From Escherichia coli (GTDB lineage Bacteria; Pseudomonadota; Gammaproteobacteria; Enterobacterales; Enterobacteriaceae): a stretch of DNA of 780 nt. Shown here piece after piece: positions 1 to 780 of this stretch. The notes below the pieces were generated by a model. That model saw nothing but the letters and a program-made list of their open reading frames with translations. It ran no database searches and was not told the DNA's origin. Position 1 is the first letter of the stretch. Each line of letters begins with the position of its first letter. A program made the position numbers and the translations under genes. The stretch is from NCBI RefSeq assembly GCF_003334355.1, contig NZ_QOWP01000101.1, one strand, 5' to 3'.

Positions 1-328
1 CGGATATTGGCGCACCTCCGCAGCTACTGGCAAAATAGCCAGGACTCCACAAAACGCCTTTGTAGTAATACCTGACTGCAATATCTGGTCGATCTCGTCG
101 CAGTAACCTACCCGATACGCCTTTGAGGCTGTTTACCAGACTGGATATCGCCAGTTTGGGAGGATAGTTAATTAACAAATGGACGTGATCTGGTTCGCCA
201 TCCATTTCAACCAGTTCAGTTTCAAAATCAGCACATACATTTGAAAAGTAAGTGCGTAGTTTTTCTGTCGCGTCATAGTCAAAAATCTGACGTCGGTATC
301 TGGTGACAAAGACCAGATGAACATGCAT
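1..328 (-). CDS. tnpA: IS200/IS605-family Y1 (HUH) transposase TnpA; 3' end continues past position 1; alternative in-frame upstream start at ATG 391..389
   Basis: Minus-strand translation from ATG 328..326 is open to the window edge: MHVHLVFVTRYRRQIFDYDATEKLRTYFSNVCADFETELVEMDGEPDHVHLLINYPPKLAISSLVNSLKGVSGRLLRRDRPDIAVRYYYKGVLWSPGYFASSCGGAPIS. It shows the beta-1 motif HLVFVTRYRR (compare YHIVWCPKYRR in IS608/IS200 TnpA), the HUH motif DHVHLL (plus coords 179-187) and the catalytic Tyr context SPGYFASSCGGAP (Tyr codon at 37..35). The same frame stays open upstream to ATG 391..389 (adds MILWSVKKETDIRRGRHCVFL) and closes at TGA 445..443. Neither start has a strong Shine-Dalgarno (GGAAGG is about 16 nt upstream of ATG 328). 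Confidence 0.88.
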   Translation of the reverse strand, partial: MHVHLVFVTRYRRQIFDYDATEKLRTYFSNVCADFETELVEMDGEPDHVHLLINYPPKLAISSLVNSLKGVSGRLLRRDRPDIAVRYYYKGVLWSPGYFASSCGGAPIS

Positions 329-370
329 CAGGAAAACACAATGCCTTCCACGCCGGATATCGGTTTCTTT

Positions 371-404
371 TTTCACAGACCAAAGTATCATTTGGCCTGT
401 GAAA
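371..404. repeat. Imperfect inverted repeat / predicted stem-loop: 14-nt arms with one A/C mismatch and a 6-nt loop
   Basis: Left arm 371-384 TTTCACAGACCAAA, loop 385-390 GTATCA, right arm 391-404 TTTGGCCTGTGAAA. Thirteen of 14 positions pair; the single mismatch is 379 A against 396 C. It overlaps the tnpA alternative ATG (391..389) and the tnpB candidate GTG (399-401), and is preceded by a T-rich tract (363-373). Confidence 0.6.
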
Positions 405-509
405 CGACTACAGGCATTTAAATTCCAGTTAAGACCAGGTGGTCAACAGGAGCGTGAAATGAGGCGCATGTCGTTTCGTTTTCAATCGTGCTCTGGCGCT
501 TCAGAATGA
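399..509 (+). pseudogene. tnpB: Frame-0 ORF fragment carrying the conserved TnpB N-terminal motif, out of frame with the tnpB body; likely the original tnpB 5' end separated by a frameshift
   Basis: From GTG 399 in frame 0: VKRLQAFKFQLRPGGQQEREMRRMSFRFQSCSGASE, stop TGA 507-509. AFKFQLRP matches the TnpB N-terminal consensus KAYKFRLYPtkeQ. There is no ATG in this frame before 459. After residue M (459-461) the family-like sequence continues only in frame +1 (GACRFVFN from 463). Confidence 0.5.
448..452 (+). promoter_or_regulatory. Shine-Dalgarno-like AGGAG, 6 nt upstream of ATG 459-461
   Basis: AGGAG at 448-452, spacer CGTGAA, then ATG at 459. The ATG is in frame 0, which terminates at 507-509, so it yields only a 16-codon ORF unless the frame is corrected. 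The motif could also simply be coding sequence (QE) of the frame-0 N-terminal fragment. Confidence 0.3.
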
Positions 510-780
510 GAATCATGAGGCCGGTAATAAATACATCCCTTACGGGAAAATGGCTTCCTGGCTGGTTGAGTGGAAAAACGCCACTGAAACGCAATGGCTT
601 AAAGATTCTCCCTCACAGCCATTGCAACAGTCACTGAAAGACCTTGAGCGGGCTTACAAAAACTTCTTCCAGAATCGGGCTGCTTTTCCCCGATTCAAAA
701 AGCGGGGACAGAATGATGCATTCCGCTACCCGCAGGGCGTTAAGCTCGATCAGGAAAACAGCCGTATTTTTCTGCCGAAA
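463..780 (+). CDS. tnpB: TnpB/OrfB (IS605 OrfB family, RNA-guided nuclease family), N-terminal region only; continues past 780; 5' end frame-disrupted, so start is undefined and this may be a pseudogene
   Basis: Frame +1 translation 463-780 has no stops: GACRFVFNRALALQNENHEAGNKYIPYGKMASWLVEWKNATETQWLKDSPSQPLQQSLKDLERAYKNFFQNRAAFPRFKKRGQNDAFRYPQGVKLDQENSRIFLPK. It matches recalled TnpB N-terminal signatures: G-x-CRFVYN (here GACRFVFN), L-x-x-AYKNFF, FP+FKKK (here FPRFKKRG) and I-x-LPK. An in-frame TGA sits at 460-462 directly before the conserved Gly. The first canonical start in this frame is ATG 550-552. Confidence 0.8.

Follow-up and report, generated by a model that had tools for sequence, protein, structure and literature searches.

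The locus and its insertion sequence

The stretch of DNA analyzed here, referred to as the window, is 780 nucleotides of Escherichia coli (GCF_003334355.1, contig NZ_QOWP01000101.1). From their sequence, bases 1-391 on the minus strand are identified as most of tnpA, the transposase gene of IS609, an already catalogued E. coli insertion sequence of the IS200/IS605 family. The encoded protein is a Y1 (HUH/Tyr) transposase of single-stranded DNA. The gene is transcribed divergently from a frameshifted tnpB/insQ (Table 1). The reading that we favor, at a probability of roughly 75%, is that this is the tnpA of IS609 with a canonical N-terminus and a start at codon 376-374, that expression runs from divergent, overlapping -10 boxes, and that the copy is a decaying insertion in ytfA.

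Megablast matched the window in 4996 of 5426 complete E. coli genomes, at a median of 2 places per genome, and nucleotide identity to E. coli loci annotated as tnpA or IS609 was 97-99.9%. The top matches (99.9%) are an insertion within the TetR-family gene ytfA, between yjfZ and ytfB. At the identical site O157:H7 carries an intact IS609, in which tnpA is annotated as 143 amino acids (aa) and tnpB as 402 aa; window positions 318-436 are identical to this copy (L002). The copy in K-12 MG1655 likewise carries the annotation IS609; its genes are listed there as yncK, a pseudogene of tnpA, and insQ. Compared with intact IS609, 11 bp are missing from the tnpB of the window at 461/462, resulting in a frameshift, so that a first-pass annotation made from the sequence alone was right to call this partner gene disrupted. 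The deletion (window 455-470) falls between two AGGCGC direct repeats (ATGAGGCGCTTCGCAGGCGCATG to ATGAGGCGCATG), a pattern typical of replication slippage.

Table 1 Features of tnpA, its start region and the adjoining tnpB/insQ gene in the window
Feature	Position	Strand	Remarks
tnpA coding sequence from the conserved start codon	1..376	-	exits left window edge after Ser130 (numbered from ATG 391)
W115-SPGYFASSCGGAP (SPGYFASSCGGAP at 8-46)	8..49	-	conserved Trp, then strand and loop ahead of helix alphaD
HUH motif H69-V70-H71	179..187	-	inside DHVHLL (173-190); aligned with H64/H66 of ISHp608 TnpA
HLVFVTRYRR, strand beta-1 and subsequent basic motif	290..319	-	
ATG 328 (Met22), first residue of predicted beta-1	326..328	-	first in-frame AUG on the mapped transcript
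GRHCVFL	329..349	-	
IRRGRHCVFL, codons I12-L21	329..358	-	conserved N-terminal block of Y1 transposases, preceding beta-1
14-bp inverted repeat, arms 371-384 / 391-404, 13/14 complementary	371..404	.	both GTG starts placed symmetrically, pairing with each other
GTG, conserved family start codon	374..376	-	third base (374) is the published O157:H7 transcription start
TTGGTCT, seven bases ahead of the start codon	377..383	-	near-invariant non-coding block
TGaTACTTT, extended -10-like element	382..390	-	family box TATAnT is GATACT at 384-389
TATCAT, -10-like box for tnpB/insQ	386..391	+	overlaps tnpA-side box by 4 bp
ATG 391	389..391	-	RefSeq start in the Prokaryotic Genome Annotation Pipeline (PGAP), 143-aa WP_000604943.1 (L002 1460-1891; L085 1138-1569)
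Sequence pair at base 389: ATGATACT / ATTATACT			
tnpB/insQ 5' part	399..780	+	GTG 399; reading frame fails after codon 21; premature stop 507-509

The TnpA protein

The minus-strand frame from 391 to 2 is stop-free over 130 codons, and upstream it stays open to a stop near 445. Pfam Y1_Tnp (PF01797) matched residues 18-129 (E = 5.4e-36, far beyond chance), and NCBIfam transpos_IS200 (NF033573) scored 144 bits against a cut-off of 55, with residues 13-138 aligned to profile positions 2-126. With DHVHLL present in this open frame, the earlier identification of the protein as an IS200/IS605 TnpA, and of its HUH motif as intact, holds. A further claim, that the catalytic tyrosine lies in SPGYFASS, does not. 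In HMMER alignments Y119 (SPGYFAS) pairs with Cys111 of ISHp608 TnpA, and the catalytic Y127 of that protein, located on helix alphaD (PMC3597680), pairs with Y135 in AIRQYIEQQ. Codon 135 falls 11-13 nt left of window base 1, and because the nucleophile is beyond that edge, the catalytic integrity asserted in the first-pass annotation is unreadable from the window. Locus L001, which is 99.9% identical, does contain the Y-x3-Q signature (Y135...Q139, aligned with Y127/Q131 of ISHp608).

An AlphaFold2 (AF2) model built on a deeper alignment (A4) had the RRM-like HUH fold of TnpA, with a predicted local distance difference test score (pLDDT) of 86.8. When it was searched against the PDB with Foldseek, the best 29 matches were all IS200/IS605 TnpA proteins (ISDra2, IS608 and Sulfolobus), with template modeling (TM) scores of 0.65-0.79. 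A model from a shallow alignment of 32 sequences at 78-96% identity reached a pLDDT of 66 and was set aside. Every family feature that could be tested in or beside the window is present in this TnpA.

The conserved N-terminal block

As the first-pass annotation observed, the open frame upstream of HLVFVTRYRR does encode GRHCVFL, which it took as a second beta-1-like segment in an unusual N-terminus. Comparison of 72 distinct loci, found by scanning a single genome for each species, places this segment within a near-invariant block of the family. R13, G15 and F20 never change and R16, H17 and C18 hardly do, with third codon positions free to vary, and across codons 12-21 there were 362 synonymous versus 100 non-synonymous codon differences from the window (71 loci). 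The block, written as h-R-x-G-R-H-x-V-F, is retained in homologs at 40-60% identity. Alignments to the solved chains 2ec2, 2f4f, 2xm3 and 2a6m start at query residues 11-16 and chain residues 3-14, pairing RRGRHCVFLMHVHLVF with KSTRHAKYLCNYHFVW and KKGRGYVYQLEYHLIW; the block itself aligns to residues 3-12 of solved TnpA chains. The NCBIfam profile begins at residue 13, and that of Pfam inside the block at residue 18. In the AF2 model, beta-1 comprises residues 22-30, and residues 1-21 are a coil of lower confidence (pLDDT 64-67). By this conservation the N-terminus of TnpA is canonical for its family, and GRHCVFL is identified as its conserved block, not as a duplicated strand.

Comparative evidence for the start codon

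Two starts had been weighed for tnpA, ATG 391 and ATG 328. Both are in frame, and the opinion that the start is genuinely ambiguous at the level of ribosome binding was borne out, as neither has a Shine-Dalgarno core at working distance; GGAAGG, 15 nt before ATG 328, is the sole purine-rich stretch there, and only AGG precedes ATG 391. Homolog alignment, however, gives neither of the two. Among 74 distinct loci anchored on the conserved N-terminal block, from dozens of species, 72 have ATG at the codon equivalent to 376-374; the other two, the window and an Escherichia sp., have GTG. Many annotated homologs begin here, with MKKETD, MKNETD or MTKETD, and have a length of 138 aa, and the first residue of representatives at 41-60% identity is at most a few residues away from query position 6. 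In 34 of the 74 loci the upstream frame is closed by a stop before any ATG, GTG or TTG is reached, and in 17 a stop in frame precedes the conserved Met by five codons or fewer. GTG opens tnpA as well as tnpB in the window and in the ytfA-site and K-12 IS609 copies of E. coli that were examined; nearly all relatives use ATG twice, and in the EDL933 copy at the gltX site, the tnpA start is ATG.

The bases ahead of this codon carry a different signature. TTGGYCT occupies positions -7 to -1, where six of its seven bases are 95-97% conserved (74 loci; L004-L083), above the neighboring codons, and -3 is T or C. Its would-be third codon positions are fixed and one would-be first position varies, the reverse of a coding pattern, and bases 377-391 as a whole lack coding periodicity. 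The proposal to ask whether 329-391 is conserved at the protein or only at the nucleotide level therefore has a divided answer: constraint on 329-373 is that of a protein, the start codon occupies 374-376, and in 377-391 only the DNA sequence is conserved. Two other roles for TTGGYCT were considered and rejected. As a transposon target or a site resembling a target-adjacent motif (TAM) it failed, since three insertion sites share just TTTAT at the left end and the TTGGCCT in the ytfA flank is coincidental; as a partner for pairing with the downstream AGAC/AGGC of the R-H codons it showed no covariation by eye.

Taken as a matter of conservation, the ancestral start of the family is codon 376-374, GTG in Escherichia and ATG elsewhere, and the RefSeq annotation of IS609 TnpA, which uses ATG 391, probably overextends the gene by five codons. 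We also considered that ATG 391 is the true start, giving a 143-aa TnpA that begins MILWSVKKETD and is translated without a Shine-Dalgarno sequence from a transcript beginning inside tnpB. This ATG is the PGAP start at each of the E. coli loci inspected, the frame is open well upstream of it, and some gene callers extend relatives in the same way, to 143- and 146-aa forms. However, an ATG is found at the equivalent position in just 2 of 74 loci, ATT being commonest, and both the nearby stops in 17 loci and the absence of coding periodicity speak against translation of this segment. ATG 391 is probably not a real start, and we regard this explanation as very improbable, a judgment to which the transcript maps described below also contribute.

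Published transcription start sites

The published maps of transcription start sites (TSSs) come from strains MG1655 and EDL933, and the statements made here cover the TSSs listed in them. SMRT-Cappable-seq of MG1655 lists the insQ TSS at 1503656 (PMC6131387), and the annotated insQ start in this genome is 1503657. The thrL TSS is given as 147 in that table and as 148 in a study of EDL933 (PMC10469882), so the former appears to be 0-based; because its thrL value is one lower, the insQ TSS reads as 1503657, the G of GTG. An independent list from differential RNA sequencing (dRNA-seq; PMC4681348), which uses older coordinates, has a forward-strand TSS at 1501681. When mapped to the window, the K-12 insQ TSS is G399, the 8th base after the TATCAT box. 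Given what we take to be the offset between genome versions, position 1501681 presumably matches the first base of the insQ GTG, give or take one. According to these published maps, the tnpB/insQ mRNA is leaderless in K-12.

In O157:H7 EDL933, Cappable-seq lists TSSs at 5331051(-) and 3334151(+), in two IS609 copies and under all 8 conditions (PMC10469882). Both tnpA TSSs are 17 nt downstream of the annotated ATG, at the equivalent of window base 374, which is the 8th base after TACTTT; the start codon that contains the TSS is GTG in one copy and ATG in the other. ATG 391 is therefore off the main tnpA transcript in O157:H7, as far as the listed sites go. The same study found 466 TSSs downstream of assumed starts and suggested wrong annotation as one reason (PMC10469882). 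If a leaderless mRNA is defined as one whose TSS is the first base of the start codon, the definition fits insQ in K-12 and does not fit tnpA in O157:H7. Among the EDL933 TSSs listed there was no tnpB-side, antisense or upstream tnpA TSS, which carries little weight given the extent of the list. Similarly, the locus has no entry among the TSSs listed in an MG1655 Cappable-seq supplement (PMC4782308), and a kasugamycin translatome paper leaves the tnpA and tnpB genes unmentioned.

These maps draw attention to ATG 328 as the working start in E. coli IS609, which would yield a 122-aa TnpA without the N-terminal block and possibly with altered or inhibitory activity. On the mapped transcript it would follow a 46-nt leader, Met22 is kept in 63 of 72 loci and begins beta-1 in the AF2 model, where residues 1-21 are coil, and some pipelines call proteins from this residue (e.g., P0121). 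Even so, codons 12-21 are under strong purifying selection and lie inside the NCBIfam profile and the PDB alignments (with Pfam starting at residue 18), Met22 is replaced by Leu or Ile in 9 of 72 loci, GGAAGG is too distant to serve this ATG, and so truncated a Y1 transposase may fail to fold or to act. We consider it an improbable start.

The divergent spacer and its -10-like boxes

The start codons of tnpA and tnpB are 20-23 bp apart in the 68 loci with a divergent layout, and 22 bp apart in the window. On the tnpA side, the start is preceded at a distance of 6-8 nt by a -10-like hexamer, which fits nAnnnT in 67 of 68 loci and is most often TATACT, with a match of at least 5/6 in 48 of 68 loci. 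On the tnpB side the hexamer is 5-7 nt before the start and most often TATAAT, with at least 5/6 matching TATAAT in 67 of 68 loci. The two opposed hexamers overlap, and a Shine-Dalgarno core was found before tnpA in 0 of 73 loci. The E. coli copies carry ATGATACTTTGG where relatives have ATTATACTTTGG, such that G at 389 replaces a T of the family TATACT box. A consensus scan for a strict sigma-70 promoter found none in the window and none in L005, and in Serratia (L008) it returned TTGAAG-18-TATACT, ending 7 nt before the ATG.

The inverted repeat around the spacer folds on tnpA-sense RNA (z = -4.0), and ATG 391, which the first-pass annotation had placed inside a hairpin, does sit there, at a loop/arm junction. 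Predicted stability is -19 kcal/mol in Escherichia versus -2 to -15.5 kcal/mol in other genera. The palindrome was rejected as a conserved regulatory hairpin, as outside Escherichia only the CAT/ATG and Lys-codon symmetry is kept. On read-through RNA, the 14-bp hairpin would contain ATG 391 and the GTG alike, a further difficulty for a start at ATG 391.

Three terminator-like hairpins with T-rich tails were predicted, at 395-415 (+), 580-598 (-) and 352-364 (+), versus a chance expectation of 0.7. The minus-strand one, at 598-580, could halt antisense transcripts heading from within tnpB to tnpA. A search against Rfam gave zero matches at E <= 1.

A model for expression of tnpA

Under the favored reading, translation would start at GTG 376 and yield a 138-aa protein beginning M-K-K-E-T-D-I-R-R-G-R-H-C, and ATG 391, lying upstream of the TSS, would be an annotation artefact of the T-to-G change in the -10 box. 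The 22-bp divergent control region would drive both genes, each -10-like hexamer being about 7 nt from its start codon, an arrangement that would explain the absence of a Shine-Dalgarno sequence. Given the geometry of insQ, where the TSS is at the 8th base after the -10 box, relatives with TATACT-N7-ATG should initiate at the A of ATG and would make a leaderless tnpA mRNA. In E. coli, TG at 390-389, in which G389 also creates ATG 391, may form an extended -10 that moves initiation downstream by 2 nt. A start codon for full-length TnpA would then be missing from most tnpA transcripts of E. coli, and this protein would be made rarely or never: on the main transcript the first in-frame AUG would be ATG 328, with no well-spaced Shine-Dalgarno sequence, and full-length protein would require rare initiation at 376 or read-through RNA, on which the Escherichia-specific hairpin would bury both start codons. 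A nearly silent element of this kind fits the low copy number and the lack of new insertions by the K-12 copy.

The fullest form of this scheme is a single bidirectional promoter of about 22 bp, whose overlapping -10 boxes give two leaderless mRNAs, with TTGGYCT as a discriminator that fixes the tnpA start at the A of ATG and the Escherichia T-to-G extended -10 throttling the transposase by shifting initiation 2 nt. We put it forward tentatively, as a proposal that may well fail in one or more of its parts.

Several observations weigh against the favored reading. The evidence on the start is comparative and transcript-based, and the mapped tnpA TSS lies inside the proposed start codon, which makes this codon unusable on the main E. 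coli transcript. The TSS data are from strains other than the source of the window, and minor or upstream TSSs are possible beyond those listed; a leaderless tnpA mRNA in relatives is a prediction. The AF2 model has residues 1-21 as lower-confidence coil, in which no strand is seen at GRHCVFL, and any structural role of the N-terminal block is putative. In addition, leaderless GUG messages are said, by Van Etten and Janssen in 1998, to be poorly translated in E. coli.

State of this copy and of its relatives

The copy in the window would be a fixed, decaying insertion in ytfA, and the question arises whether its tnpA is already a dead pseudogene, making the start moot for this locus. The chances of this appear only a little short of even. 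Besides the frameshift in its partner tnpB, the 99.9%-identical locus L001 has lost the tnpA stop (TAG to CAG after ...QQQTPG), so that the frame crosses the element end into ytfA and PGAP calls a pseudogene. Distant E. coli lineages share the insertion at this position in ytfA, the K-12 copy carries an internal stop, and IS609 made 0 new insertions in mutation-accumulation lines (PMC5009759). The GTG start, with the TSS listed for O157:H7 falling inside the codon, points in the same direction. On the other side, tnpA within the window is free of stops, frameshifts and changes at invariant residues, both genes are intact in the O157:H7 allele at the same site, and stop-less alleles are found at several different insertion sites, so that mobility may have persisted in read-through forms.

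The tnpA stop is absent from many IS609 copies of E. coli (L001 2463-2468 and L003; P0001, P0002, P0003, P0007 and P0012). The stop-less frame passes the left-end hairpin into the flank, with predicted proteins of 160-204 aa. Either continued mobility or gene conversion may have carried this form to its several insertion sites.

Elements of the IS605 type carry a tnpB partner and subterminal imperfect hairpins in place of terminal inverted repeats. IS609 agrees with this in its tnpB and in a left-end hairpin, CCCCGTCC-TTCA-GGGCGGGG, which is found in L001, L003 and L086, outside the window. TTTAT stands directly 5' of the left end (CCGGTGCG...) at all three insertion sites examined (L001 2398-2402, L003 1398-1402 and L086 at about 1623-1627) and is probably the target or TAM-type motif of IS609. 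Two of these three sites come directly after terminator-like hairpins with T-runs, one downstream of ydcL and the other next to gltX.

A few relatives come from unexpected hosts. L016 (NZ_BMTT01000064.1, a 2057-bp contig assigned to 'Streptomyces mutabilis') has a start region nearly identical to that of Proteus mirabilis (L027), and seems to be a contaminant in the Streptomyces assembly, not a genuine copy from an actinobacterium. Copies from Alicyclobacillus tolerans (L036) and from metagenome-assembled genomes of a Methylacidiphilaceae member (L055) and a cyanobacterium (L058) have 71-74% protein identity and the start-region layout of 21-23 bp; in these non-proteobacterial assemblies they represent either horizontal transfer or contamination at binning or assembly.

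Significance and comparison with known systems

Novelty is low, as this is a textbook transposase of a known element, with a start puzzle that is real and is answered by codon 376. Two by-products are of some value. One is a small correction to the RefSeq IS609 TnpA, whose annotated start recurs at all of the inspected E. coli loci, and the other is the promoter model: the 20-23 bp spacer with overlapping -10 boxes, conserved in many proteobacterial relatives, together with the leaderless insQ of K-12, makes it cheap to test. It would explain how a transposase and an RNA-guided nuclease are expressed without ribosome-binding sites, as well as the near-silence of the E. coli copies.

The closest known system is IS609 itself (yncK/insQ in K-12 MG1655), with which the window shares 97-99.9% identity, the divergent arrangement of tnpA and tnpB and the ytfA site of O157:H7. 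It differs from intact IS609 by the 11-bp tnpB deletion, and in its nearest relatives the tnpA stop is gone as well. The TnpA proteins of ISHp608/IS608 and ISDra2 (2a6m, 2vjv, 2xm3) have the same fold (TM about 0.7), HUH motif, conserved Trp and Y-x3-Q, and their N-terminal block aligns from chain residues 3-14, but identity is just 28-31%. The two genes are codirectional in IS608, whereas here they are divergent, on either side of a 22-bp spacer.

In the IS200 of Salmonella, folding of the tnpA mRNA masks the start region and keeps translation low. IS609 resembles it in having a transposase gene without an effective ribosome-binding site, and on read-through transcripts the Escherichia hairpin would bury the start. 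The IS609 hairpin is not conserved outside Escherichia, and the mapped transcript is without its upstream arm.

Leaderless mRNAs are known from other E. coli mobile elements, among the examples listed being lambda cI, Tn1721 tetR and the prophage genes dicA, racR and ymfK (PMC4681348). In contrast to messages of the lambda cI type, the insQ start is GUG rather than AUG, and the tnpA TSS of E. coli lies 2 nt inside the codon. The likeness is nonetheless clear for insQ, as its TSS coincides with the start codon in the entries listed in two data sets, with a -10 box about 7 nt upstream and no Shine-Dalgarno sequence.

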